This document shows, piece after piece, positions 1 to 64,000 of a DNA stretch of 64,000 nt. Location: positions 329,423 through 393,422 of the forward strand of contig MFRA01000005.1 of assembly GCA_001783215.1 (NCBI GenBank). Direction: 5' to 3'. The stretch is from Candidatus Magasanikbacteria bacterium RIFOXYD1_FULL_40_23 (GTDB taxonomy: Bacteria > Patescibacteriota > Patescibacteriia > Magasanikbacterales > GWA2-37-8). The translations under genes were made by a program, and so were the position numbers. The notes under the pieces are model-generated. The model saw only the letters and a program-made list of their open reading frames with translations. It made no database searches and had not been told where the DNA came from. The stretch's first letter is position 1. Each line of letters starts with the position of its first letter.

Positions 1-14
1 CACAATCAAAGTCA

Positions 15-905
15 ATGACTCGAGCCGACGCCGGTTCTCTTTTGGAAGAAAAAATACCGGCCAAAACTTCGGGTGGCTTGGTTAGTTCCAAACGAGAGGG
101 TCAGGTAGAAGAAGTAATTAGAAAAATTGGTTTTGGAGTAGCTCCAGATTTGCAGGGTAGATTAAAAAGTTTAATTTTGGCTAGATTGAAAGATATAAAA
201 AGTGAAGATGAAACACGAGAGGTTCTTTCTAGAGCAACGAAAAACAGCGGCTTAGGTCTTTCTGATACTCAAGCAGATAAAATTATTAAAACTTGTAAAG
301 AAGTTTTGGCAGCCGAAAGTTCTTTGGTAAAAGAAAACAATGTTGATATCCCGGGATTAAAAGGAAAACCAAGTAGTATGTCTCTAATGGTAGAGCCACC
401 GGAATTGCCAATGGTAATTCCTGTAAAGGATAATTTTGCTACAAAAAATTCTACCCCAGTTTCGGCACCAATTAAGCCAGTAGGCAATAGTGTAGTTTCT
501 AAATTGATAAATGAAAGCATGGGTAATGAGCCGGTATTTAAGATTAGTACCAAGCCAGTAGTGAAATCAATGGTTCAAGACGTATCTGCTCCGCCAGATC
601 TAGAAATGGGACCAGTAGAAGAATTTAAATCCCTCACAATTGCAGAGTTTAGAAGACTGTCTAGCAATCCAGAAGAAGCCGCCAAAAGACTGCATCAAAA
701 AATGGTTAATTTACAGGAAGAATCTTTTGTGTGGTATCTGGATGCTGTGGCCGCATATCATAGTTCGCCGTTATATTTAGAGTATATGTTGGCAGTCAGC
801 CAGTCTTTAGCTGACAGAAAATCTTTGGCCAATGTACTTGCTGTGAAAAATGGTATAAAATTAAACGAAGTAATGGCAATAGTAGAAATGGAAAAGACGT
901 TGTAA
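15..905 (+). CDS. hypothetical protein (may be 5'-truncated by the window edge)
   Basis: 296-aa ORF with no recognisable motif; the in-frame sequence upstream of ATG at 15 has no stop, so the gene may start outside the window. Confidence 0.3.
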   Translation: MTRADAGSLLEEKIPAKTSGGLVSSKREGQVEEVIRKIGFGVAPDLQGRLKSLILARLKDIKSEDETREVLSRATKNSGLGLSDTQADKIIKTCKEVLAAESSLVKENNVDIPGLKGKPSSMSLMVEPPELPMVIPVKDNFATKNSTPVSAPIKPVGNSVVSKLINESMGNEPVFKISTKPVVKSMVQDVSAPPDLEMGPVEEFKSLTIAEFRRLSSNPEEAAKRLHQKMVNLQEESFVWYLDAVAAYHSSPLYLEYMLAVSQSLADRKSLANVLAVKNGIKLNEVMAIVEMEKTL

Positions 906-991: not shown

Positions 992-1417
992 ATGGAACAA
1001 TTTGTAGTGCCACAATTTATAGAAGTGGAAGATAAGATCTTTGGCCCTATTACCACCAGACAGTTTATTATTTTACTGGTAACTGGGTTGGTTTTATTTA
1101 TTATTTTTAAATTAGCCGACGTAACGTTATTTATTTTTCTAGCTGTGTTAATAGGCGGTTCGGCTGTGGTAGTGGCCTTTGTAAAAGTAAATGGCCAGCC
1201 ATTCCATTATTTTTTATTAAATATAGTGCAAACATTGCGCCGTCCAAGCAGAAGAGTGTGGTATAAGAGTTTTAGCAAGACTGAGCTGTCAGAGTCAATT
1301 AAGTCCGGAAAACTGGAGGTAGTCGAAGTAATAAAAGAAGTTCCGCGAATGTCTTATAGCAGAATCCGGGATCTATCACTTATAGTAAATACAGGAGGGT
1401 ATTACAAACCAGAGTAG
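992..1417 (+). CDS. PrgI-family-like small membrane protein (T4SS-associated)
   Basis: N-terminus VPQFIEVEDKIFGPITTRQF followed by two TM helices is the typical PrgI-family pattern; it lies just upstream of a VirB4-like ATPase. Confidence 0.45.
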   Translation: MEQFVVPQFIEVEDKIFGPITTRQFIILLVTGLVLFIIFKLADVTLFIFLAVLIGGSAVVVAFVKVNGQPFHYFLLNIVQTLRRPSRRVWYKSFSKTELSESIKSGKLEVVEVIKEVPRMSYSRIRDLSLIVNTGGYYKPE

Positions 1418-1444
1418 CGTCTTTTTTATAGAGTTTCGTAGTGT

Positions 1445-1514
1445 GTCATTCTGAGCAAAGCGAAGAATCCCTCTCGTTCGGGTGTAAGGGATCCTTCACT
1501 CCGTTCAGGATGAC
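1445..1514. repeat. palindromic intergenic element family A, copy 2
   Basis: near-identical to copy 1; lies between the PrgI-like gene and the next ORF. Confidence 0.8.
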
Positions 1515-1549
1515 AGTTGAAGCGAGTCTCATTTGCAATTATCAAAAAT

Positions 1550-2227
1550 ATGGAAGAAAAACCACAAAAAAAGAAAATATCAGTCCCAAGTGCTCAAAGC
1601 CATCTGCCTTTTGCCGAAATCAAATTTGATACGGCAATCATGAAAGATGGTACTTTGCGTGCTGTTCTTATGGTTTCTAGCATTAACTTTGCTTTGAAAA
1701 ATGAAGACGAGCAAAACGCCATTATTTCTTCCTATGTTTCTTTTTTAAACGGCATTGATTTTCCTTTGCAGATTGTGATTCAGTCTCGTCAGTTATATAT
1801 CAAACCGTACTTAGAAAAATTATTAAAAAAAGAGCGTGAACAAACCAACGAATTATTGCGAGTACAAATAGCGGACTATAGATCTTTCGTATCCGAGCTT
1901 GTTAGTCTGGGCAACATTATGAGTAAACAATTCTTTGTGGTTGTGCCTTTTGATCCGCTATCCAACAAAAAAAGAGGTTTTTGGTCCAGAATAAAAGAAG
2001 TTATAAACCCGGCGATAACTATTAAGCTTAAAGATGAGAGATTCCAGCAGCGGAAGCGTGATTTGGATATGAGAGTGCGACAGATACAATCTGGACTTGC
2101 AAGTATGAACTTGGAAGTAGTAAGACTAGATACACAATCGCTAATTGAGTTATTTTATTCTACATATAATCCTGATATTGCCTTTAGCGAACACTTGCCA
2201 TCGGTAAGTGAGTTAAGAGTGGAGTAA
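1550..2227 (+). CDS. hypothetical protein (T4SS-module associated)
   Basis: ORF in the same orientation between the PrgI-like and VirB4-like genes; the start was moved to ATG 1550 because the 1517 start overlaps repeat copy 2. Confidence 0.35.
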   Translation: MEEKPQKKKISVPSAQSHLPFAEIKFDTAIMKDGTLRAVLMVSSINFALKNEDEQNAIISSYVSFLNGIDFPLQIVIQSRQLYIKPYLEKLLKKEREQTNELLRVQIADYRSFVSELVSLGNIMSKQFFVVVPFDPLSNKKRGFWSRIKEVINPAITIKLKDERFQQRKRDLDMRVRQIQSGLASMNLEVVRLDTQSLIELFYSTYNPDIAFSEHLPSVSELRVE

Positions 2228-2251
2228 GCAAAGTTAACTTATATTTCGAAT

Positions 2252-4120
2252 ATGGCTTTTCAACCAAAATTTGCCGTTCCATCTTTCAAGAAAAAAGGGC
2301 CTTTATCCAGTAAGGAGATTGAGATTGCCAAAAAAGCAGGCGAGGAATTGATTACTCTGGAAGAAGAGAGGGTCTATCGCGAAGGCACGGTTTCCATAAA
2401 AGATCTGTTGGCGCCTTCGGCTTTTAATGTTGAATCTAATTTTATAAAGTTGGGCGACATATTTTGTCGTACTATATTTGTGGTAACTTATCCTAGATAT
2501 ATTTCTATTGGCTGGAGCTCTCCTGTGCTTAATCTTTCTATTACCATGGATGTGGGTATGTTTTTTTACCCTGTGCAAGCTCCTGTGATTTTGAAACAAT
2601 TAAGAAACAAAGTAGGTGCTTTGGAAGCCCAGTTAAATGCAGATTCAGAAAAGGGTGCGCCTCGCGATCCGGTGCGTGAAACCGCTTTGCGCGACATAGA
2701 GCAGCTGCGCGATGATCTTACCCAAGGCATTGAGCATTTTTTCCAGTTTTCTTTTTACGTAACTCTTTATGCCAAAACAAAAGAAGAGCTTGATCAAACT
2801 TCCGAAGATGTAGAAAACATTTTTGGTTCCAAACTTATTACCAGTCGTAAAGTTTTGTATCAAGCGGAACAAGGGTTTAATTCTACTCTGCCTTTGGCAA
2901 ATGATGAGCTGATGATATCTTTTAACCTGAACTCTTCGCCAATTGCTGCGTCTTTTCCATTTACTTCCGCAGAGCTTACTTCAGACGATGGTATTCTCTA
3001 TGGTGTAAACCGTCACAACAACAGCCTTATTTTATTTGATAGATTCTCTTTGCAAAACGCCAACATGGCAGTGTTTGCCACTTCTGGTGCTGGTAAAAGT
3101 TACGCTATCAAGTTAGAAATTTTGCGCAGTATGATGATGGGCGCAGATATTATTGTTATTGACCCGGAAATGGAATATAAACATTTGGCAGATGCTGTGG
3201 GTGGTACCTATATAAACATTTCTCTTTCTTCCGAAAGTAAAGTAAATCCTTTTGACTTGCCAAGACCAACTGGCGGACAAGATTTTTCTACAGAAGATAT
3301 AATTCGTGGCGCTGTTATAACTGTAAAAGGCTTGCTCCGTATCATGCTCGGCACGCTTACCACTGAGCAGGATTCTGTAATAGACCGCGCGCTGATAGAA
3401 ACCTATGCCAAAAAAGATATTACCCCTGAAGCAGATTTGGCTGTAGTGCAGCCACCGATAGTTCAAGATTTGCAAGAAATTCTAGAAGGCATGGAAGGTG
3501 CGGGTGATTTGGTTCTTCGATTAAAAAAATATACTGAAGGTACTTTTAGTGGTTTGTTTAACGCGCCTACCAATGTAAATATGAAAAATCAGTTGGTAGT
3601 ATTTAGTGTGCGCGATTTGGAAGACGAGCTGCGCCCTATGGCCATATATGCTATAGTTAACTATATATGGAATGTAGTAAGATCCGAACATAAGAAAAGA
3701 ATACTAGTCATCGATGAAGCCTGGTGGCTTATGCAACACGAAGACAGTGCCAGATTTATCTTTGCTTTGGTAAAACGCGCTCGTAAATATTATTTGGGTG
3801 TTACAACTATTACCCAAGATGTAAATGACTTTTTGAAATCTCAGTACGGACAGGCAATCGTGACCAACTCTGCTTTGCAAATGTTGTTGCGCCAATCACC
3901 GGCATCCATAGATTTGGTGCAGAAAATTTTCTTGCTTACCGAAGGCGAAAAATATTTACTCCTAGAGAGTGGAGTAGGGGAAGGGATATTTTTCGCCGGC
4001 AATAAGCATGCAGCCATTAAAGTGGTGGCTTCATATACCGAAGATCAGTTGGTAACCACCAATCCGGAGCAGATTTTGGAGATAGAAAAATCTAAGAAAG
4101 AGTTCGAAAAACAAGCATAA
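2252..4120 (+). CDS. virB4: VirB4/TrsE/PrgJ-type conjugative-transfer ATPase
   Basis: Walker A (VFATSGAGKSYAIK) and Walker B (ILVIDEAWWLM); N-terminal LAPSAFNVESNFIKLGDIFCRTIFVVTYPRYI is a VirB4-like block. Confidence 0.7.
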   Translation: MAFQPKFAVPSFKKKGPLSSKEIEIAKKAGEELITLEEERVYREGTVSIKDLLAPSAFNVESNFIKLGDIFCRTIFVVTYPRYISIGWSSPVLNLSITMDVGMFFYPVQAPVILKQLRNKVGALEAQLNADSEKGAPRDPVRETALRDIEQLRDDLTQGIEHFFQFSFYVTLYAKTKEELDQTSEDVENIFGSKLITSRKVLYQAEQGFNSTLPLANDELMISFNLNSSPIAASFPFTSAELTSDDGILYGVNRHNNSLILFDRFSLQNANMAVFATSGAGKSYAIKLEILRSMMMGADIIVIDPEMEYKHLADAVGGTYINISLSSESKVNPFDLPRPTGGQDFSTEDIIRGAVITVKGLLRIMLGTLTTEQDSVIDRALIETYAKKDITPEADLAVVQPPIVQDLQEILEGMEGAGDLVLRLKKYTEGTFSGLFNAPTNVNMKNQLVVFSVRDLEDELRPMAIYAIVNYIWNVVRSEHKKRILVIDEAWWLMQHEDSARFIFALVKRARKYYLGVTTITQDVNDFLKSQYGQAIVTNSALQMLLRQSPASIDLVQKIFLLTEGEKYLLLESGVGEGIFFAGNKHAAIKVVASYTEDQLVTTNPEQILEIEKSKKEFEKQA

Positions 4121-4143
4121 GTATATAATCTAACATTAATTGT

Positions 4144-4725
4144 ATGTCACTTCGCGTTCGCATTTTTATCATCGTCAGTGTTGTGGTGCTTTTGGTTTTA
4201 TCTGTAAGTATATTTTTGATAGTTAAAAATAAAAATAAAACTACAGACACTACTACAACCCCAGGCACAGACACAACTTTGCCTAGCACAAGTGGCGGTA
4301 CTCAGTCCGATGTCCAAGTATTAATCGACAAAGGTCTTCCGGCCAAAACACCTACCCCTTTGGAAGTTGAACAAAATGCAGTGGAGCAGTTAGCCAAGAT
4401 TTTTGTAGAGCGCTACGGTACTTATTCCACAGATAACGAATTTCAAAACATAAAAGAATCCCAGACTTTGGTTACCAAATCTTTATGGTCTAGAATTAGT
4501 GTGGGTATAAATGCAAAATCAACCAGTCAAGATTTTTTGGGTCTTACTACCAAAGTAATGAGTACCAGATTGGCTATTTGGGAAGATGCTCGCGCTACTG
4601 TAGAGATAAAAACTATGAGAACAGAAGATAAGGGCGGAGTTGTATCAACTCGTTATCAGAATGCCGCTGTAGGTATGGTAAAAGAAGACGGTGTATGGTT
4701 GGCCAATACATTGGTTTGGAATTAA
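4144..4725 (+). CDS. membrane-anchored protein with Thr-rich linker
   Basis: N-terminal TM helix followed by a TTDTTTTPGTDTT low-complexity linker and a globular C-terminus. Confidence 0.35.
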   Translation: MSLRVRIFIIVSVVVLLVLSVSIFLIVKNKNKTTDTTTTPGTDTTLPSTSGGTQSDVQVLIDKGLPAKTPTPLEVEQNAVEQLAKIFVERYGTYSTDNEFQNIKESQTLVTKSLWSRISVGINAKSTSQDFLGLTTKVMSTRLAIWEDARATVEIKTMRTEDKGGVVSTRYQNAAVGMVKEDGVWLANTLVWN

Positions 4726-4726
4726 C

Positions 4727-5374
4727 ATGTCTGGCAATGTGGTAGGTTGGTTGAAAGATTTATTGTTTCCCAAATTTTGTGTAAGTTGCAAGCAAGAAAG
4801 TGATTGGTTGTGCGAAACGTGTCTGCAAGCAATTTTAAATTTAAAAGACTATTCTTCTATAGATAACCAAGCCGTTTCTAATCTGGATAAGATAACGGCT
4901 TTGTTTGATTATGGAGAAAATACAGTATCAAAATTAATTCAGATGTTTAAGTACAACTATTTAATTGAGCTAGAAGATGTTTTTAGAAAGATGATATTTG
5001 CAAGCCGGCTAGATTTTATTATAAAAGATTTTGTTGTTATGCCTGTACCGCTTCATCCGCGCCGAGAGCGAGAAAGGGGCTTCAATCAATCAGAAATTTT
5101 AGCAAACCTATTTGCAGAAAAACTTGGGCTAGAAATAAATAAAGATTTGCACCGTGCCGTATATACCAAACAGCAAGCCAAGCTTTCTGGTGTTGCTAGG
5201 CGAGATAATTTAAAAGATGTTTTTGTGTTTCGCCAAATAGATAAAATAGTACCAGAAAAAGTTCTACTTATAGATGATGTATATACTACTGGTGCAACTA
5301 TGGAGGAGTGTGCCAAAGCGCTAAAAAGCGTTGGGGTAAAAGTTGTTTGGGGGTTGGTAATGGCCAGAGGATAG
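4727..5374 (+). CDS. comFC: ComF-family competence protein (phosphoribosyltransferase-like)
   Basis: N-terminal Cys cluster (CVSC...CETC) and C-terminal PRTase motif (LLIDDVYTTGATM); the start was set to ATG 4727, just after the previous stop. Confidence 0.65.
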   Translation: MSGNVVGWLKDLLFPKFCVSCKQESDWLCETCLQAILNLKDYSSIDNQAVSNLDKITALFDYGENTVSKLIQMFKYNYLIELEDVFRKMIFASRLDFIIKDFVVMPVPLHPRRERERGFNQSEILANLFAEKLGLEINKDLHRAVYTKQQAKLSGVARRDNLKDVFVFRQIDKIVPEKVLLIDDVYTTGATMEECAKALKSVGVKVVWGLVMARG

Positions 5375-5380
5375 GCCTTC

Positions 5381-5707
5381 CTATATAGGAAGCATGGCTC
5401 GGGCGTCTGGGTCCATCATATCTATTGTCCACATTGGGTTCCAGACCAAGTCTACTGTAACTTTTTTTATTTTAGGAAGCTTTGCCATTTCTTCTTTTAC
5501 TTGCTCAATTAGGCTGGCGCCAAACGGGCAGCCCATACTAGTAAAGGTCATGGTCACCATAGCGGTGGTATTTTTGATTTCTATATTATATACAAGTCCT
5601 AAATCTACAATACCCATACCTACTTCTGGATCAAAAATAGTATTGAGAATTTTCCAATATTCTTGGGTGCGTTGTTCGGGTGGGGTAGGGGTTATTTTTT
5701 TGCTCAT
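5381..5707 (-). CDS. DUF59/MIP18-family Fe-S cluster assembly protein (SufT-like)
   Basis: GMGIVDLGLVY...MTFTSMGCP motif characteristic of DUF59; it lies at the end of the suf operon. Confidence 0.55.
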   Translation of the reverse strand: MSKKITPTPPEQRTQEYWKILNTIFDPEVGMGIVDLGLVYNIEIKNTTAMVTMTFTSMGCPFGASLIEQVKEEMAKLPKIKKVTVDLVWNPMWTIDMMDPDARAMLPI

Positions 5708-6067: not shown

Positions 6068-6082
6068 AAGTAATTGGTAGTT

Positions 6083-6150
6083 GTCATCCTGAACGCAGTG
6101 AAGGATCCCTTAAGCCATGAGAGGGATTCATTCGCTCTGCTCAGAATGAC
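6083..6150. repeat. palindromic intergenic element family A, copy 3 (inverted orientation)
   Basis: GTCATCCTGAACGCAGTGAAGGATCCCT ... AGGGATTCATTCGCTCTGCTCAGAATGAC between sufU and sufS. Confidence 0.75.
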
Positions 6151-6165
6151 AACCTGTATTTATAA

Positions 6166-7383
6166 TTATAGTTTAAATATTTTCAATACTTTTTTTAAAG
6201 CTATTTCGACTGTGTCTATATCTTTTTTTGTATTATAAATATAAAAGCTCAATCGCGCGGTGCCATTTGGTGCGCCTAGTTTTTGTAAAAGCGGTTCGGC
6301 GCAATGTAGTCCGGAGCGAATAGCTATGCCGTGGTCGTTAAATATAGTAGCAATGTCGTGCGGGTGTACGCCGTCTATAGCAAAAGATAATACTGCTCCA
6401 GTGTCTTGTGGTTTAGATGGAGAGAAAACTTTTACTTGCGGGTAGCGTGCCAACATCTTTTTTGCGTAAGCGAGCAGTTCTTTGTCGTGATCGGCAATAT
6501 TTTTTAAGCCAATTTTGTTTATATAATCTATGGCTGCACCATATGCAACTACGCCTGCAATGTTTGGCGTACCAGCCTCAAATTTCCAGTGGCCAGTGCG
6601 GTAGGTAGCAGATTTTTCTTGTACAGATTCTATCATTTCGCCACCATACATAAATGGCGTCATTTCGTTCATCAAGTCGCTTCTTATATATAGCACTCCT
6701 ACGCCGGTTGGGCCCATCATTTTGTGGGCAGAAAAAGCAAAGAAATCACAACCAAGACTGGTTAAGTTGGTAGGCGTGTGTCCCACGCTTTGTGCGCCAT
6801 CCACCATTACTTTTGCGCCTACTATATGTGCCATTTCTACTATTTTTTTAACAGGCGTAATTGTGCCAGTTACATTGGATTGAGCGGTAACACAAACCAA
6901 TTTTGTTTTTGCAGAAAGAAGTTTTTGGTAAGCGTCTGTGTCCAAAATATAATTTGCAGTTAGAGGGATAATTTTTAAAATAGCCTTTTTATTTTTGGCC
7001 AATTCTTGCCACGGTACCAAGTTGGCATGATGTTCTAGAGCGCTAACAATTATCTCGTCTCCGGCATTAATATGTTTTTGTCCCCAAGCTACCGCTACGC
7101 AGTTTATAGATTCGGTAGCGCTTTTGGTAAAGATTATTTCTTCTTCTGTGGCGCCAATAAATTTGGCAACTTTTTTTCTTACTTCTTCGTACTTATCAGT
7201 AGCTTCTTCGGATATGGTGTGTATGCCACGATGAATATTGGCGTTAGAGGTAGAATAAAAATCTACCAGTGCCTTTAGTACTGTTTTTGGTTTTTGGGTG
7301 GTGGAGGCGTTATCTAAATAGATTAGCGCTTTGCCATTAATTTTTCTTTTGAGAATAGGGAAGTCTGATTTGATGTTTTGCAT
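6166..7383 (-). CDS. sufS: cysteine desulfurase SufS
   Basis: 405-aa class V aminotransferase; N-terminus LIYLDNASTTQKP; SAHKMMGPTG PLP-lysine region; C-terminal RSGLHCAEP. Confidence 0.85.
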   Translation of the reverse strand: MQNIKSDFPILKRKINGKALIYLDNASTTQKPKTVLKALVDFYSTSNANIHRGIHTISEEATDKYEEVRKKVAKFIGATEEEIIFTKSATESINCVAVAWGQKHINAGDEIIVSALEHHANLVPWQELAKNKKAILKIIPLTANYILDTDAYQKLLSAKTKLVCVTAQSNVTGTITPVKKIVEMAHIVGAKVMVDGAQSVGHTPTNLTSLGCDFFAFSAHKMMGPTGVGVLYIRSDLMNEMTPFMYGGEMIESVQEKSATYRTGHWKFEAGTPNIAGVVAYGAAIDYINKIGLKNIADHDKELLAYAKKMLARYPQVKVFSPSKPQDTGAVLSFAIDGVHPHDIATIFNDHGIAIRSGLHCAEPLLQKLGAPNGTARLSFYIYNTKKDIDTVEIALKKVLKIFKL

Positions 7384-9582: not shown

Positions 9583-9653
9583 GTCATTCTGAGAGAAACG
9601 AAGAATCCCTTAAGCTTAAAACGAGAGGGATCCTTCATTGTATTCAGGATGAC
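9583..9653. repeat. palindromic intergenic element family A, copy 5
   Basis: GTCATTCTGAGAGAAACGAAGAATCCCT ... AGGGATCCTTCATTGTATTCAGGATGAC between sufB and sufC. Confidence 0.75.
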
Positions 9654-14862: not shown

Positions 14863-14901
14863 GGCGGAGAGGGAGGGGTTCGGCTTCGACTAAAATTTTT
14901 T
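14863..14901 (-). repeat. tRNA-Ser 3'-end-like fragment (att-like direct repeat, copy 1) just after the GIY-YIG #1 stop
   Basis: minus-strand reading TAGTCGAAGCCGAACCCCTCCCTCTCCGCC, compared with the tRNA 3' end GGTTCGAATCCCTCCCTCTCCGCC. Confidence 0.6.
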
Positions 14902-15132
14902 ATCCAAATGTTTTTTTAAAAAAGCTCTGCCAGAACCAGATTTTAAATATTTTTCAAATTCAAATGCTGTGTATTTATCTTTGAATGCGAAGTAGGCTGT
15001 AAGTTCAACTGGTAAGCGCTTAGCTGTGGCTGGTACTTGGCCTTTTTGATGTCTAGCCATACGTTCTTTTAAATCGGATGTACAGCCAGAATAAAAACCG
15101 TCTTTGCATTTTAATATATAAACATAGTGCAT
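14890..15132 (-). CDS. small GIY-YIG nuclease-family protein (YhbQ/UPF0213-like), copy 1
   Basis: HYVYILKCKDGFYSGCTSDLKERMARHQ contains the GIY-YIG motifs and aligns with E. coli YhbQ; 80 aa. Confidence 0.7.
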   Translation of the reverse strand: MHYVYILKCKDGFYSGCTSDLKERMARHQKGQVPATAKRLPVELTAYFAFKDKYTAFEFEKYLKSGSGRAFLKKHLDKKF

Positions 15133-15241
15133 AAGCGGATTTTATCACGCCGAAGCTTCATCTTTGATAATTCGCATGAACCAAGTATTATGAAAAACTT
15201 AGAACTCGCCTCTGCCCTAAAGGGCTACGGCGAAGCGAAGG

Positions 15242-15326
15242 CGGAGAGGGAGGGATTCGAACCCTCGGTGCCTTGCGGCACACAGCTTTAGCAAAGCTGC
15301 ACAATCGACCACTCTGACACCTCTCC
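15242..15326 (-). tRNA. tRNA-Ser (anticodon GCU by hand fold), type II with long variable arm
   Basis: 7-bp acceptor GGAGAGG/CCTCTCC; anticodon stem CAGCT/AGCTG with loop TTGCTAA; variable arm GTGCC-GCAA-GGCAC; T-arm GAGGG-TTCGAAT-CCCTC; CC but no A encoded. Confidence 0.7.
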
Positions 15327-15831: not shown

Positions 15832-15856
15832 CTGGAGAGATATGATTCGGCTTCGA
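15832..15856 (-). repeat. degenerate tRNA 3'-end-like fragment (att-like, copy 3), matching the 3' end of the second tRNA
   Basis: minus-strand reading TCGAAGCCGAATCATATCTCTCCAG, compared with the tRNA at 16209-16295 3' end TCGAATCTCTATCTCTCCGCC. Confidence 0.5.
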
Positions 15857-16099
15857 CTAAAATTTTTTATCCAAATGTTTTTTTAAAAAAGCTCTACCAG
15901 AACCAGATTTTAAATATTTTTCAAATTCAAATGCAACGTATTTATCTTTGAATGCGAAATAGGCTGTAAGTTCTAGTGGTCGGCGATTGATTGTGGCGGG
16001 AACCTGGCCTTTCTGATGTCTTGATATGCGTTCTTTTAGGTCTGAGGTGCAACCAGAATAAAAACCGTCTTTGCATTTTAATATATAAACATAGTGCAT
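15857..16099 (-). CDS. small GIY-YIG nuclease-family protein (YhbQ-like), copy 2
   Basis: 80 aa, identical to copy 1 at both ends but diverged in the centre (ERISRHQKGQVPATINRRPLEL vs ERMARHQKGQVPATAKRLPVEL). Confidence 0.7.
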   Translation of the reverse strand: MHYVYILKCKDGFYSGCTSDLKERISRHQKGQVPATINRRPLELTAYFAFKDKYVAFEFEKYLKSGSGRAFLKKHLDKKF

Positions 16100-16208
16100 A
16101 AGCGGATTTTATCACGCCGAAGCTTCATCTTTGATAATTCGCATGAACCAAGTATTATGAAAAACTTAGAACTCGCCTCTGCCCTAAAGGGCTACGGCGA
16201 AGCGAAGG

Positions 16209-16295
16209 CGGAGAGATAGAGATTCGAACTCTAGAGGCCCTTTCGAGCCCGGCAGTTTAGTAAACTGCTGCCTTAAACCACTCGGCCATCTCTCC
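16209..16295 (-). tRNA. type II tRNA (Ser-like); anticodon reads ACU in my hand fold, which is atypical
   Basis: acceptor GGAGAGA/TCTCTCC; D-arm GCC-GAGTGGTTTAA-GGC; anticodon stem GCAGT/ACTGC with loop TTACTAA; long variable arm; T-arm TAGAG-TTCGAAT-CTCTA. Confidence 0.6.
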
Positions 16296-24911: not shown

Positions 24912-25364
24912 GTGGAGAAGCGCAATCTGGATGTAGAGGAAGCTGCTCGCAATGGTATTTCGACTATCTATGAGCAGATGCCGAACGGAGAGTTCCGTTA
25001 CAAGCTCATGCATAGTGGTTTCGGCAATGTTGGTATCGGTATTGCTGGTATGCATGGTGTTTGGCAGAATAGCCACTACCACAAGGGTGTGCAAGAGTTC
25101 ATGGCAGTTCAAGAGGGTTGGATAGCTTTTGTTGAAATGACACCCGGCGGTCTTGGCTGGATCATTTTGCGCAAGGGCGATACAGTTATCAGCAAGCCAA
25201 ACATTGCGCACAATGTGTATGTGTCGGCTGGCACGGTGTTCTACGGCGTAAAGTTCGGCGATATTGATCCGGAAAAAGGGGATTGGTATCCCAGTCCGGA
25301 ACTCGACGTTCTTGTCAAAGGCATGAGCGAGAGTGAGATTCTTCTGGTTGGTGGAAAGAAGTAG
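24912..25364 (+). CDS. cupin-domain protein
   Basis: HYHKGVQEFMAVQEG ... two-His cupin motifs; GTG start 6 nt after an AGGAGG Shine-Dalgarno. Confidence 0.45.
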   Translation: MEKRNLDVEEAARNGISTIYEQMPNGEFRYKLMHSGFGNVGIGIAGMHGVWQNSHYHKGVQEFMAVQEGWIAFVEMTPGGLGWIILRKGDTVISKPNIAHNVYVSAGTVFYGVKFGDIDPEKGDWYPSPELDVLVKGMSESEILLVGGKK

Positions 25365-25606
25365 GTTTGGTCGGATTGCATTCGTCCAACCTCAGATTAT
25401 CCGAAGTCGGTCGCGTTAGCTACCGGCTTTTATATTTATTTAATATATTTGTCATCTTTATGGATAAAACCATATTGTAGCGTTAGGTGGTTCCAGTAGT
25501 TTAGGCTATTTCATAGGTGTGCATTCCCTTGACTTTTGTGTTTATTTATTATAGATTAATCTGTCCTCTCGATTTACAGTGAGTCGGAGACAAAAAGGGG
25601 AAAGTC

Positions 25607-26299
25607 ATGAAAATCCAGGGATTCGCGTTTGATCTTGAAGGTACGGTAGTGAATGTGGAGCCTGCACATCACAACGCCCATTTCGCCACTGCGGCGGAGG
25701 TTGGCTTGGAGATCAACTCCGATAATGCGTTTCAGCTCTTGCCACACTTCATCGGTGGGCCGGATATCAAGGTGATGGAGGACATTTGGGCACTTAGCCA
25801 GAAGAAGGTCTCGCCCGGTGAGCTATTGAAGCGCAAGCAGTTCCACTACGAGCAGCTGCTCGCAACGATGGACGTGGCTCCGCGCAGAGGCTTTCGGCAC
25901 TTCTTCAACACGGTTGTCGATCTTGGTCTGTCTGTTTCGATCGGTTCGCTTACTCCGATGGTTCAGGCCAGGGTGCTTCTGGATCGCTCAGGTGTGGGCA
26001 AGGTGATTGGGGAGGCGAACATTGTCTTGGCCGAGCATGTGCAGAATCACAAGCCGGCGCCCGATGTGTTCTTGGAGACCGCACGACGGATGGGAATCAA
26101 TCCCACGCGCCAGCTGGTTTTCGAGGATTCACCTCGAGGAGTTCAAGCGGCAATCTCTGCTGGCTCCCGAGCTGTTGGCATGCCGGTCTACAACCGGCCC
26201 GAGGCCACCGTGCCGCTCATCCAGGCGGGCGTTTGCCGGCTGTTCATGGAATGGGACGAGATTAGCGTCTTGCCGTTCCTTCAGAACCTGGCGATGTAG
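25607..26299 (+). CDS. HAD-superfamily hydrolase (beta-phosphoglucomutase-like subfamily)
   Basis: motif I FDLEGTV and a C-terminal FEDSPRGVQAA motif III/IV region; high GC; Shine-Dalgarno AAGGGGAAAG. Confidence 0.6.
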   Translation: MKIQGFAFDLEGTVVNVEPAHHNAHFATAAEVGLEINSDNAFQLLPHFIGGPDIKVMEDIWALSQKKVSPGELLKRKQFHYEQLLATMDVAPRRGFRHFFNTVVDLGLSVSIGSLTPMVQARVLLDRSGVGKVIGEANIVLAEHVQNHKPAPDVFLETARRMGINPTRQLVFEDSPRGVQAAISAGSRAVGMPVYNRPEATVPLIQAGVCRLFMEWDEISVLPFLQNLAM

Positions 26300-26318
26300 A
26301 CACGGTATTAGTAACAAC

Positions 26319-26366
26319 GGCCATCCGACACACGTCGGATTCAAATGAGGGCTTGGCCACCCTCAT
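26319..26366. repeat. island-specific double-hairpin repeat, copy 1 (GGCCATCCGACacacGTCGGAT + GAGGGcttggccaCCCTC)
   Basis: two adjacent perfect hairpins; a near-identical copy at 27203-27250. Confidence 0.6.
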
Positions 26367-26456
26367 CTAATGGCATTCCGAAGTGGTTTCGGGGTGGCTT
26401 GGATCCACCACGGGAATAATCGTGATGGAAAAACAATGAGTACAGGAAGGTGAGCC

Positions 26457-27185
26457 GTGGACATTCTCCTCATTCTCGGGCGTGGTATTCAGATGCTTCA
26501 GGCAACGGATCCGGTCTCGGAAGTTCGTTCATGGCAGTTGACCGAAGATCTTGAGATGTGTACTGAGTTGGGTGCGCACCCGCAAGTGCGTGTGCCCGTC
26601 GACGACAACGACCCCAATTGTCTGGTGGGGGGTGCTCAGTTGAACTTGGAAGCAGGCAAGGTGCTGATTCGGCAACATTCGCCACAGGTTGTCGTTTGTG
26701 CATACGGAGACCGTTCCAAGTATTTGAAAGATATTGGCGGGCCTTCAGAGAGCCAGGTGATGACCGGAGTTCTCCAGAAGGATCTTGTCGATGCAGATTT
26801 GGCCAGAAAGCCAGAATTGGTTATCTGGGATCCGGCGCGTTCAAAGGGCGCCCATTCGAACACTCGGCAGGAAATCCTCAACGTCTTCGATCTGGCTATC
26901 GAGCTTGGGTTGGAGCGAATCGGATTCGTGACTGTCGGAGTCCATGTTCCGCGGACAGCGACTTTCATTGCGAAGCACATTTCCACTTTCTCCAAGTACC
27001 AACATCTCTCGCCGGTCATGTTCGAGAGCGAAGAGGTGTTGCTCGGATCTTCCGACCAGTGGAAGTCTCGGGTTGATACTCTCCGCAATTCTCAGGCTTT
27101 CTCTCGCAACCTGACCAATGAGTTCAGAGGCACCTTGGCAGCGCTTACTGGGAAGTATAATGCCGTGAAGGAGCAGACGAAGTAA
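26457..27185 (+). CDS. hypothetical protein (weakly DUF218/YdcF-like)
   Basis: GTG start 6 nt after an AGGAAGG Shine-Dalgarno; ILLILGRG ... VVCAYGDRS blocks; high GC. Confidence 0.3.
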   Translation: MDILLILGRGIQMLQATDPVSEVRSWQLTEDLEMCTELGAHPQVRVPVDDNDPNCLVGGAQLNLEAGKVLIRQHSPQVVVCAYGDRSKYLKDIGGPSESQVMTGVLQKDLVDADLARKPELVIWDPARSKGAHSNTRQEILNVFDLAIELGLERIGFVTVGVHVPRTATFIAKHISTFSKYQHLSPVMFESEEVLLGSSDQWKSRVDTLRNSQAFSRNLTNEFRGTLAALTGKYNAVKEQTK

Positions 27186-27202
27186 GCCCTTCGTAGTTAC
27201 GT

Positions 27203-27250
27203 GGCCATCCGACGCATATCGGATTTTAAATGAGGGTTTGGCCACCCTCA
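27203..27250. repeat. island-specific double-hairpin repeat, copy 2
   Basis: GGCCATCCGACgcatatcGGAT + GAGGGtttggccaCCCTC, matching copy 1. Confidence 0.6.
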
Positions 27251-27423
27251 ATTATCAGTAATCTGATTTTTATAAATGAGATTAGTGATAAGCAAAAATA
27301 CAAAAATATTTTTGTAAAAAGTTCTTTTCAATTTATTTTTTGCACAACACGTTTATTATTTTAAAATTTTTGAACTAATAAGTGTGTTGTGCAATGGGTG
27401 CACATGCGAACCAGGAGAACGAC

Positions 27424-28431
27424 ATGGATACTGATTTTTTCACGTGTGATTCGCAGTTTGTTATGGAATTGTCTGCCCCTGTTCGGGCGGCTGTATTCGC
27501 CGTTCTGGCAGCCGGTGATGTGGCCCAATGGGAAGATCGCGTGCCGAGAGTAAAGGCCGGCGAAGGACAACGTTCCGTTGTTACCGATGGAGATACAAGC
27601 GCAGAGGCGGTCATGGTGAGGAGACTGTTCTATTATGCTGGCTACAACGCACTTATTCTCTCCGAAGAGGACGCCAAGGGTGTCAATATTCTGTCAAAAG
27701 ATAACCCTGTGGGTATCTTGGAAGCAGAGGTTGCTTTCGTGATTGATCCCATCGACGGTACCGCACCCTATTCCGGCTATTTGGGCACATGGTGTGTGTC
27801 GGTTGGGGTGCTGAGTAAGGGCGAAATTATCGGCGGAGCTGTCTATGCTCCGGATCTCAACGGCGGGATGCTGGTCTTTTCGGAGAGGGGGTTGGGAACG
27901 ACTCTGATGAAGTACTGTTCGTTGCCCGCTCGTACACAGATTAGTAAGATTCCATTCCTTACGGCTTCAACCAAGGTGAAGAAGGCTAGGATTGGGCGTG
28001 GTGTAGATACGGATCTCTATCGTCTGATCGGTGAGCTGGTGAGCGCAGAAATCGCTCCCAGCGTGAACATGACCGCGGTGTGCAATTCTGGCATCCTGGG
28101 CCTAACGCAGGTCGCTTGTGGCCAGCTTACGGCTATCATTCAGATGCCGCAGAAGTCATGGGATTGGGCAGGTGCATTTCGCGCCGTGCTAGAAACCGGA
28201 CGGACTGTGTCGTTCTTCCGTCTACTGCCAGATCCAAGCGCTCAGAAATCGGATATGCTGGTGGAAGTGGACGGTTATGACTTCGATGCGTTTAGGTATG
28301 CCAAGCAGCATCGGCTTGGTTTCGTGGCTGGTGAGCCGGACATGGTTCGGCGCATCATGGAGCAGATGCCTCGTACGGGCTACAACCGCACCAACCCGGA
28401 GACGGTTGCCGGAGTTTGGAAGGACAAGTAG
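27424..28431 (+). CDS. inositol-monophosphatase/CysQ-family phosphatase
   Basis: metal-binding motif VAFVIDPIDGT; the start was set to ATG 27424, 6 nt after an AGGAGA Shine-Dalgarno; high GC. Confidence 0.6.
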   Translation: MDTDFFTCDSQFVMELSAPVRAAVFAVLAAGDVAQWEDRVPRVKAGEGQRSVVTDGDTSAEAVMVRRLFYYAGYNALILSEEDAKGVNILSKDNPVGILEAEVAFVIDPIDGTAPYSGYLGTWCVSVGVLSKGEIIGGAVYAPDLNGGMLVFSERGLGTTLMKYCSLPARTQISKIPFLTASTKVKKARIGRGVDTDLYRLIGELVSAEIAPSVNMTAVCNSGILGLTQVACGQLTAIIQMPQKSWDWAGAFRAVLETGRTVSFFRLLPDPSAQKSDMLVEVDGYDFDAFRYAKQHRLGFVAGEPDMVRRIMEQMPRTGYNRTNPETVAGVWKDK

Positions 28432-28565
28432 ATAAGGAGTAAGCAATGACGCTCTGTCATCAAGTCCAAAGCGGACAAGATGGCAGGGCGTGTTTTTATA
28501 TTGCATTCTTAGGCAAAAATTGGTAAAGTATAGGGCATATAATCGTAGATAAATCTACTAAACCT

Positions 28566-63359: not shown

Positions 63360-64000
63360 ATGGTTTCATTAATTGCAACTGTTTTAAATGAGGGTAACAA
63401 TATATCCGATTGGTTGAATGGAATCCTGTCTCAGACTGTTTTGCCAGATGAAATAATTATTGTAGACGGAGGATCAAAAGACGGTACATGGGAAATTTTA
63501 ACAAAAAAAAGCCAAGAAAATAATCGTATTAAAATTTTTCAACACGCAGGCAATATATCCTCTGGCAGAAATTTCGCTATAAGTAAAGCCGGTGGAGAAA
63601 ATATAGTAGTAACTGATGCTGGCTGCACATACGATAAAAATTGGTTTAAAAAAATTTCAGATCCGATTATTTCCGGTGCGCAAGTTTTTGTAGCCACAGG
63701 TTTTGGTCCTTGGTTCAAGCCAAGCGACAATTTATTAGCGTATTTAGTAGCCGCCGCCACCACTCCTGCTCCGGCTGAATTTAGCAGAAATTGGCTTCCC
63801 TCAAGCCGCTCAGTTGCTTTCAAGAAAGATGTTTGGGCAAAAGCTGGCGGTTATCCGGAATGGATTCCTCTCTGTGAAGATGTAGTCTTTGATTTCAAGA
63901 TTTTTAAAACAGGAATAAAGCCGAATTATATCCGTGAGGCGTTGGTTTTTTGGCGTCCGCGCACGACACTTTCTTCATTCTTCAAGCAATTGTTTGGTTA
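63360..64000 (+). CDS. family-2 glycosyltransferase (3'-truncated by the window end)
   Basis: MVSLIATVLNEGNNISDWLNGILSQTVLPDEIIIVDGGSKDGT; the ORF runs off the window end. Confidence 0.55.
   Translation, partial: MVSLIATVLNEGNNISDWLNGILSQTVLPDEIIIVDGGSKDGTWEILTKKSQENNRIKIFQHAGNISSGRNFAISKAGGENIVVTDAGCTYDKNWFKKISDPIISGAQVFVATGFGPWFKPSDNLLAYLVAAATTPAPAEFSRNWLPSSRSVAFKKDVWAKAGGYPEWIPLCEDVVFDFKIFKTGIKPNYIREALVFWRPRTTLSSFFKQLFG

Follow-up and report, generated by a model that had tools for sequence, protein, structure and literature searches.

A Patescibacteria-type type IV secretion operon ending in comFC in a Candidatus Magasanikbacteria chromosome

In the chromosome of Candidatus Magasanikbacteria bacterium RIFOXYD1_FULL_40_23, the gene for the competence protein ComFC stands immediately behind a row of genes resembling a type IV secretion system (T4SS), which raises the question of what this T4SS is and what, if anything, its last neighbour says about its function. 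The genes occupy positions 992-5374, all on the + strand, of a 64,000-nt stretch of DNA (the window; assembly GCA_001783215.1, contig MFRA01000005.1, positions 329,423 to 393,422) from a Magasanikbacteria-like genome that we take to belong to the GTDB class ABY1. A first-pass annotation had read them as a minimal T4SS-like module whose contiguity with ComFC fitted a role in DNA import. The region is the promoter-distal half of a longer T4SS operon, and the system is probably a chromosomal, vertically inherited and non-conjugative T4SS of the Patescibacteria type. It descends from the Gram-positive conjugation machinery of mating-pair formation class FATA (MPF-FATA), and most likely serves a host-dependent (epibiotic) lifestyle.

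The row of four + strand genes followed by ComFC was borne out, with small corrections of coordinates. The first gene (992-1417) encodes a small membrane protein of the PrgI family, an analogue of VirB3, which matches Pfam PF12666 with an E-value of 4.9e-12 and 46.7 bits, above the gathering score of 27. Its two predicted transmembrane helices are recovered by hydropathy at residues 16-34 and 46-64, and its position directly upstream of trsD and virB4 is retained in related loci. The second (1550-2227) had been listed as an open reading frame (ORF) of 226 residues; the gene is present, and its product measures 225 aa from the ATG at 1550, a start favoured by family alignment and independent gene calls, while the longest ORF runs from a TTG at 1517 and would give 236 aa. 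This protein is TrsD-like, a homologue of the N-terminal domain of full-length VirB4. It matches the NCBIfam model VirB4_plasma (Mycoplasma ICE VirB4) over positions 95-232 (E-value 3.6e-8), the pGO1-type TrsD/TraD model (1.6e-7) and positions 23-93 of the CD1110 model, along with a precomputed assignment to PF26593 (TraC-like). All 30 members of its family match both the VirB4_plasma and the TrsD models; a profile search of the family against PDB sequences returned noise only.

The third gene (2252-4120) encodes the 622-aa VirB4-type ATPase, an identification upheld by a match to NCBIfam conju_CD1110 at 356 bits against a curated cutoff of 325, in which only model positions 174-730 are covered; the canonical N-terminal ~170 residues are missing from the protein. 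Pfam matches are to PF19044, PF12846 and PF01935, library matches number 9914, and both the P-loop (ATSGAGKS) and the Walker B motif (ILVIDE) are preserved, with the GxGKS, DE and R residues invariant. Because the NCBIfam matches of the two proteins are collinear, VirB4 is here encoded as two collinear genes, TrsD and the ATPase, as in pGO1. The affinity of this Patescibacteria chromosomal VirB4 to MPF-FATA is assigned by its best NCBIfam model, conju_CD1110; against models of the DNA-import type it scores 52 bits for CedB (cutoff 700) and 133 bits for VirB4_CagE (cutoff 643). An N-terminal fusion of TrsD in the closest VirB4 representatives of 800-1100 aa was also considered and was dropped, as BLASTP of TrsD against two of them returned nothing.

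Directly after virB4, in this locus as in all 55 related loci, comes the gene (4144-4725) for the membrane-anchored, Thr-rich protein noted at first pass. This protein of 193 aa was modelled with AlphaFold2 (AF2) at a predicted local distance difference test score (pLDDT) of 84.6, giving a transmembrane helix at 3-31, a disordered Thr-rich linker at 34-56 and an extracytoplasmic, NTF2-like alpha+beta domain at 72-192. Foldseek retrieved CagV (6iqt; TMt 0.68, root-mean-square deviation 3.4), PrgL (7aed), the VirB8 of R388 (8rtd_Y), TcpC (3ub1) and an IcmL-like structure (5cnl), and ranked VirB8 homologues alongside generic NTF2 folds such as the CaMKII hub. The bitopic VirB8 topology, namely a short N-terminus, a single transmembrane helix and an NTF2-like domain encoded within a T4SS operon, is present according to the AF2 model, hydropathy and gene position. 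Searches of Pfam, NCBIfam and PDB profiles gave no sequence-level match, leaving homology to VirB8, PrgL, TraM or TcpC undetected, and "VirB8-like" is therefore a structural and positional call. On its predicted fold the protein is a VirB8-like T4SS component, so that both of the ORFs taken as unknown in the first-pass annotation appear to be T4SS parts.

ComFC, a ComF-family protein encoded at 4727-5374, combines a 4-Cys zinc finger (CVSC and CETC) with a phosphoribosyltransferase-type domain bearing the phosphoribosyl pyrophosphate-type loop VLLIDDVYTTGAT. It matches TIGR00201 with an E-value of 2.4e-28 (99 bits, under the curated cutoff of 233) and GntX with 1.9e-23. The ComFC gene had been described as following the cluster immediately, and it does so more closely than proposed: its most likely start is the ATG at 4727, one base past the TAA (4723-4725) of the virB8-like gene, rather than the GTG at 4691. 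The gaps further upstream measure 24 nt between trsD and virB4 and 23 nt between virB4 and the virB8-like gene, and a single strand is used throughout. As a convergent SUF iron-sulfur operon begins only 6 nt beyond ComFC (first gene 5381-5707), ComFC is the terminal gene, and by its spacing and orientation it is predicted to belong to the T4SS transcription unit. Scans for promoters and terminators gave signals no better than those in shuffled sequence. The ORFs and ATPase motifs are all intact. Given the many homologues of each gene and the recurrence of their order across dozens of genomes, the cluster is far beyond chance.

The module is by no means minimal. Position 1 of the window falls within the gene for p379, a conserved 379-aa protein of the operon whose C-terminal 300 aa are encoded at 1-905 (+ strand; full gene at 7515-8654 of contig L001), and because the window edge cuts the operon there, the minimal appearance is an artefact. 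The upstream genes were read from two contigs with an identical VirB4, L001 and L089, and run in the order KsgA, a 196-aa transmembrane protein, a giant protein of 2579 aa, a short GC-rich insert, a VirB6-like protein of 1110 aa, the 374-aa conserved protein p374, and p379. The full operon thus reads giant secreted Cys-rich protein, extended VirB6-like, p374, p379, PrgI/VirB3, TrsD, VirB4, VirB8-like and ComFC.

The giant protein (3726-11446 of L089; 1-1787 of L001) has a signal peptide, about 4% Cys and no Pfam domain, and is a candidate surface, contact or adhesin component of the locus. Its gene lies immediately upstream of the VirB6-like gene and is retained in many related loci; one assembly has it broken by unresolved residues (a run of X) or by a frameshift, and a homologue search with its C-terminus gave three matches, one of which supplied the upstream contig. 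The 196-aa transmembrane protein encoded 5' of it carries Asp-rich repeats of the Ca-binding, thrombospondin-type-3-like kind. The VirB6-like protein has 7-8 hydrophobic helices followed by a charged tail of ~730 aa, a build that fits the "extended VirB6" described in a recent review (PMC12857230). Four of the 31 members of its family match PF04610 (TrbL/VirB6), with a best E-value of 3.9e-7, while the copy in this genome weakly matches the CD3337/EF1877 mobilome membrane family (E-value 0.003), and a profile search of the family against PDB sequences gave noise and no match. p379 is soluble and has no transmembrane helix; apart from two small helical domains it is mostly disordered (AF2 pLDDT 68). 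It matched nothing in Pfam or NCBIfam, and its model had no significant fold match among PDB structures by Foldseek. Its gene lies directly upstream of prgI in ~50 related loci. The GC-rich insert is an island of 600 nt at 2000-2600 of L001 (~5.1-5.7 kb upstream of window position 1), with a GC content of 0.56-0.66 in a genome of 38% GC. Situated between the giant gene and the VirB6-like gene, it carries a - strand ORF of 225 aa with a transmembrane or lipobox-like N-terminus and a Cys/Asp/Thr-rich body; a gap of its size occurs only in some close relatives (L006, L034), and none exists where the two genes abut (L015, L020, L041).

Conservation was followed by scanning one genome per species for VirB4 relatives, of which 592 were found and the best 80 loci kept. 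The order giant protein, VirB6-like, (p374), p379, PrgI, TrsD, VirB4, VirB8-like is maintained in ~55 of these 80, down to a VirB4 identity of ~65%, and the nearest named relatives are Magasanikbacteria, Uhrbacteria, Falkowbacteria and other Patescibacteria metagenome-assembled genomes. Gene identities, operon structure, conserved synteny and the missing mobility genes considered below are what the analysis itself shows. comFC comes straight after the virB8-like gene in 27 of the 52 loci whose sequence extends far enough downstream. On a rough, unbootstrapped neighbour-joining tree of VirB4, these loci are concentrated in the subclade of the window itself, in which 23 of 25 resolvable loci have the ComFC state, and four cases lie elsewhere; in locus L045 ComFC is ~9 kb away on the opposite strand. 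In sister lineages the slot after the VirB8-like gene holds RadA, DsbA-RadA, or a series running T4SS-pilin-domain protein, p410, DsbA, pilin, RadA; the RadA of these loci comprises a Zn ribbon, a KaiC/RecA-like ATPase domain and a Lon-C/ChlI domain. In several loci of the ComFC type the pilin-p410-DsbA-RadA module is encoded on the other strand, 4-7 kb further downstream. The association of this T4SS with DNA-processing genes is thus real and recurrent, and is largely explained by descent within clades.

The module itself is a second conserved T4SS-linked unit of ABY1 relatives, made up of ~400-aa T4SS_pilin (PF18895) proteins, the ~410-aa p410, a DsbA-like thioredoxin and RadA. It lies right after the VirB8-like gene or a few kb off and inverted, examples being L042 12448-19000, L048 12535-18149 and L020 16815-21867 (- strand). 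None of its genes occurs in the 64-kb window, and no PF18895-like pilin ORF was found in the window by a profile search or in L001 and L089 by Pfam tables. The first-pass annotation had called for a wider search for VirB6, VirB8, competence and pilin genes: the VirB6-like (upstream) and VirB8-like genes were found, and no ComEC, ComEA or pilin gene was present in the window by Pfam tables and profile search.

This set of parts corresponds to a T4SS already on record. In a survey of Patescibacteria T4SSs, Quinonero-Coronel et al. (2025; PMC12102498) recognised a VirB4 clade that is specific to these bacteria and sister to MPF-FATA. TrsD is its commonest associated component, PrgI-type VirB3 and VirB6 are present, and VirB8 homologues are rare, "nearly all" of them in class ABY1. 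The survey describes relaxases as near-absent, the type IV coupling protein (T4CP) as usually not adjacent, KsgA and DnaA neighbourhoods as frequent, and comF, recG and radA as linked to T4SS loci in ABY1. It also reports arrays of VirB2-like pilins; such genes lie near virB4 in about 1135 of 1948 assemblies and are not treated as universal. With this clade and with the S. epibionticum cluster SEML1_0006-0019, the present locus shares a chromosomal VirB4 of MPF-FATA ancestry, a separate TrsD gene with PrgI/VirB3 directly upstream, VirB6-like and VirB8-like proteins, the lack of a relaxase and of an adjacent T4CP, and a nearby KsgA. It also has the ABY1 trait of comF, radA or recG in the locus, here as ComFC. 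It differs in having no VirB2-like pilin array or VirB1-like hydrolase beside virB4, and in three conserved members, the giant protein, p374 and p379, that go unnamed in the passages of the survey consulted. Related ABY1 loci, unlike this one, carry the pilin-p410-DsbA-RadA module beside virB4 or a few kb away. Because the clade and its comF link are already described in that paper, the locus is a clean but ordinary example of a known system.

The conjugative MPF-FATA systems (TrsC/TrsD/TrsE of pGO1; PrgI/PrgJ/PrgL/PrgH of pCF10; CD1110 of CTn2) share with it the protein families, the order VirB3-like, TrsD, VirB4, VirB8-like, and a monoderm architecture without VirB7, VirB9 and VirB10, none of which was found here with NCBIfam models and Pfam tables. 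The present system differs from them in being chromosomal and vertically inherited, in the lack of a detectable relaxase, T4CP or PrgB-type adhesin, and in an operon that ends in ComFC. Helicobacter pylori ComB is likewise a T4SS without relaxase or T4CP and cooperates with competence proteins, among them ComEC; H. pylori transformation also requires ComFC (Damke 2022, as cited in PMC10633639). ComB, however, belongs to the diderm MPF-T class and includes VirB7, VirB9 and VirB10, whereas the VirB4 here is of the Gram-positive type. The crenarchaeal Ced system (CedA/CedB), which serves import and not export, also pairs a VirB4/HerA-like ATPase with a polytopic membrane protein. However, the likeness to CedB is that of a generic P-loop protein, no CedA homologue was found by the same models and tables, and lineage and envelope differ.

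How the machine would work is inferred by homology to characterised T4SSs; its assembly, its role, and the direction and nature of its substrate are all matters of inference. The polytopic VirB6-like protein, PrgI and the bitopic VirB8-like protein would form the membrane translocon, at which PrgI would dock VirB4; the split VirB4, TrsD plus the ATPase, would sit on this translocon and power its assembly, the passage of substrate, or both. The giant secreted protein is a candidate surface or contact element. Co-transcription of comFC would place the handling of single-stranded DNA in the cytoplasm under common regulation with a host-contact machine, an arrangement that would be no proof of DNA passing through the T4SS. 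A role in host contact is suggested by transposon sequencing in S. epibionticum, whose epibiotic growth depends on the homologous cluster as an essential one (Wang et al. 2023; PMC10633639).

Given this ancestry, the locus might be the decayed remnant of an integrated conjugative element of Gram-positive type that has lost its relaxase and coupling protein, and the best matches of VirB4, PrgI and TrsD are indeed to conjugative-element families (CD1110/CTn2, pGO1 TrsD, Mycoplasma ICE). The first-pass annotation had noted that the window held no relaxase or coupling protein and took the locus to be no ordinary conjugative element. Both statements hold: among the called genes, Pfam tables list no relaxase, T4CP or integrase over a stretch that starts ~26 kb upstream of virB4 and ends with the window, 60 kb beyond the gene, an oriT not being recognisable without a known relaxase family. 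Counted from the giant gene, the tables reach ~16 kb further upstream and extend to window position 64000. Neither flanking direct repeats nor a tRNA gene lies at the borders of the cluster, the operon has the GC content of its flanks (0.38-0.40), its ORFs and ATPase motifs are undamaged, and its neighbours are the housekeeping genes KsgA, Sua5 and SUF. Gene order and housekeeping neighbourhood recur in dozens of species, which points to long-term purifying selection in the chromosome, and because the order is found in more than 50 Patescibacteria species genomes the locus is not an integrated conjugative element. The ancestry in conjugation machinery is, moreover, ancient (PMC12102498). Intact genes, flank-like GC, missing mobility genes and recurrent synteny together effectively exclude the remnant, which would be extremely improbable.

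The place of comFC can be read in two further ways, which are about equally likely. Like H. pylori ComB and archaeal Ced, the T4SS could import DNA, be it environmental or from the host cell, with ComFC (RadA in sister lineages) receiving the incoming single strand in the cytoplasm. comFC translationally abuts the last T4SS gene, its position is kept in those 27 of 52 loci across VirB4 identities of 92% down to 65%, and other lineages hold RadA, a recombination and transformation protein, in the same slot or at the end of the pilin module. The failure to find a relaxase or T4CP makes conjugative export unlikely, and Patescibacteria lack nucleotide synthesis (PMC10633639). PMC12102498 also proposes functional coordination and arrives at the same inference. 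The case is nevertheless one of guilt by association, and the adjacency falls mostly within one VirB4 subclade, so that it could be a single ancestral rearrangement kept by descent. ComFC normally partners ComEC and type IV pili, and the VirB4 here is of neither the ComB (MPF-T) nor the Ced type. Genetic work on a Patescibacterium exists only for S. epibionticum, in which the T4SS proved essential and comEC, comF and dprA could be lost (PMC10633639; PMC12857230). Loss of comEC there abolishes transformation and leaves growth unaffected, which argues that the essential role of the T4SS is independent of the Com pathway; its essentiality cannot depend on ComEC (PMC12857230). Because the argument for DNA import draws on neighbourhood and because of this Saccharibacteria genetics, import is unproven and, as a reading of the locus, unlikely; it would hardly be the main role of the T4SS. 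The other reading holds that the adjacency is functionally meaningless, the housekeeping competence gene having joined the operon end in one ancestor and been carried along since. The clustering of the ComFC state in one VirB4 clade with four scattered cases, the presence of other genes in the slot in about half of the related loci, and the distant, inverted ComFC of L045 are as this would predict; genomes of the candidate phyla radiation are, besides, compact and rich in operons of mixed function. Yet the one-base spacing has been retained while VirB4 diverged to ~65% identity, and the alternative occupants, RadA and DsbA-RadA, are DNA-processing or T4SS-linked and so non-random, and mere carriage is fairly unlikely.

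The preferred reading, a non-conjugative Patescibacteria-type T4SS serving the epibiotic lifestyle, has several points to answer. Its essentiality and its role in host interaction are extrapolated from a distant class, the Saccharimonadia. The repeated presence of ComFC or RadA at such loci is a hint of some function connected with DNA, which the reading treats as mere co-regulation. No VirB2-like pilin, VirB1-like hydrolase or T4CP was found in the window or in the 26 kb upstream, and because these are not found locally the machine as seen is incomplete; the missing parts may be encoded elsewhere in the genome. Finally, VirB8 and VirB6 were assigned through similarity of fold or through transitive evidence from the family, the two proteins of this genome having no direct significant sequence matches.

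To our knowledge, no T4SSs other than those of Patescibacteria are known to be indispensable to the cell that encodes them. ABY1 loci with a ComFC or RadA linkage are the best place to ask whether their substrate is DNA. It is rather improbable that the ABY1 T4SS is a host-to-symbiont DNA conduit leading through the VirB6/VirB8/VirB4 translocon to a co-translated ComFC (RadA in sister lineages); if it were, nucleotide-auxotrophic cells would gain a ComEC-independent route to DNA or nucleotides. The window adds no new principle. It provides a clean, fully intact example in which the end of the operon is defined, with ComFC directly adjoining the VirB8-like gene, and a fuller parts list for ABY1, comprising the VirB8-like protein, the extended VirB6, the giant Cys-rich secreted protein, p374 and p379.

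Within the operon, a palindromic intergenic repeat of ~70 nt, resembling a repetitive extragenic palindrome or a miniature inverted-repeat transposable element, brackets prgI exactly. One 70-nt copy lies just 5' of the gene (913-982) and another between prgI and trsD (1445-1514), as defined by arm matches (consensus GTCATYCTGARCRMAGYGAAGRATCC) and by RNA folds of -37 kcal/mol (z -7.3) and -43 kcal/mol (z -4.8), respectively. Further copies are found inside the SUF operon, at 6083-~6150 and 9583-9653, and the arms have seven matches in the window against none expected. The repeats create spurious ORFs at 1441-1629 and 6074-6238, and occur in contigs of the same genome and in none of the 80 related loci. 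They might influence the stability of the mRNA, or attenuation, around prgI.

Beyond the operon, the window contains SUF, assorted housekeeping genes and a glycosylation/polysaccharide cluster of 40 kb. A 300-nt direct repeat of 91% identity is present at 14879-15178 and 15846-16145, each copy encoding an 80-aa GIY-YIG protein beside a tRNA-Ser gene (15240-15326 and 16207-16295, - strand); the anticodon given by ARAGORN for the second tRNA, ACT, is unusual for bacteria and may reflect a mis-call or a variant tRNA. At 25000-28500, at the start of the large glycosylation cluster, lies an island with a GC content of 0.46-0.56 against ~0.38 for the genome. This island carries a HAD hydrolase gene, an inositol-phosphatase-family gene and two ORFs without a Pfam match (24912-25364 and 26457-27185), and may have been acquired horizontally. 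The cluster for cell-surface glycans as a whole extends over 20000-64000 as ~40 kb of nearly unbroken + strand glycosyltransferase, sugar-nucleotide, methyltransferase, Wzy_C, PMT_2 and flippase genes, which is very large for a small genome.

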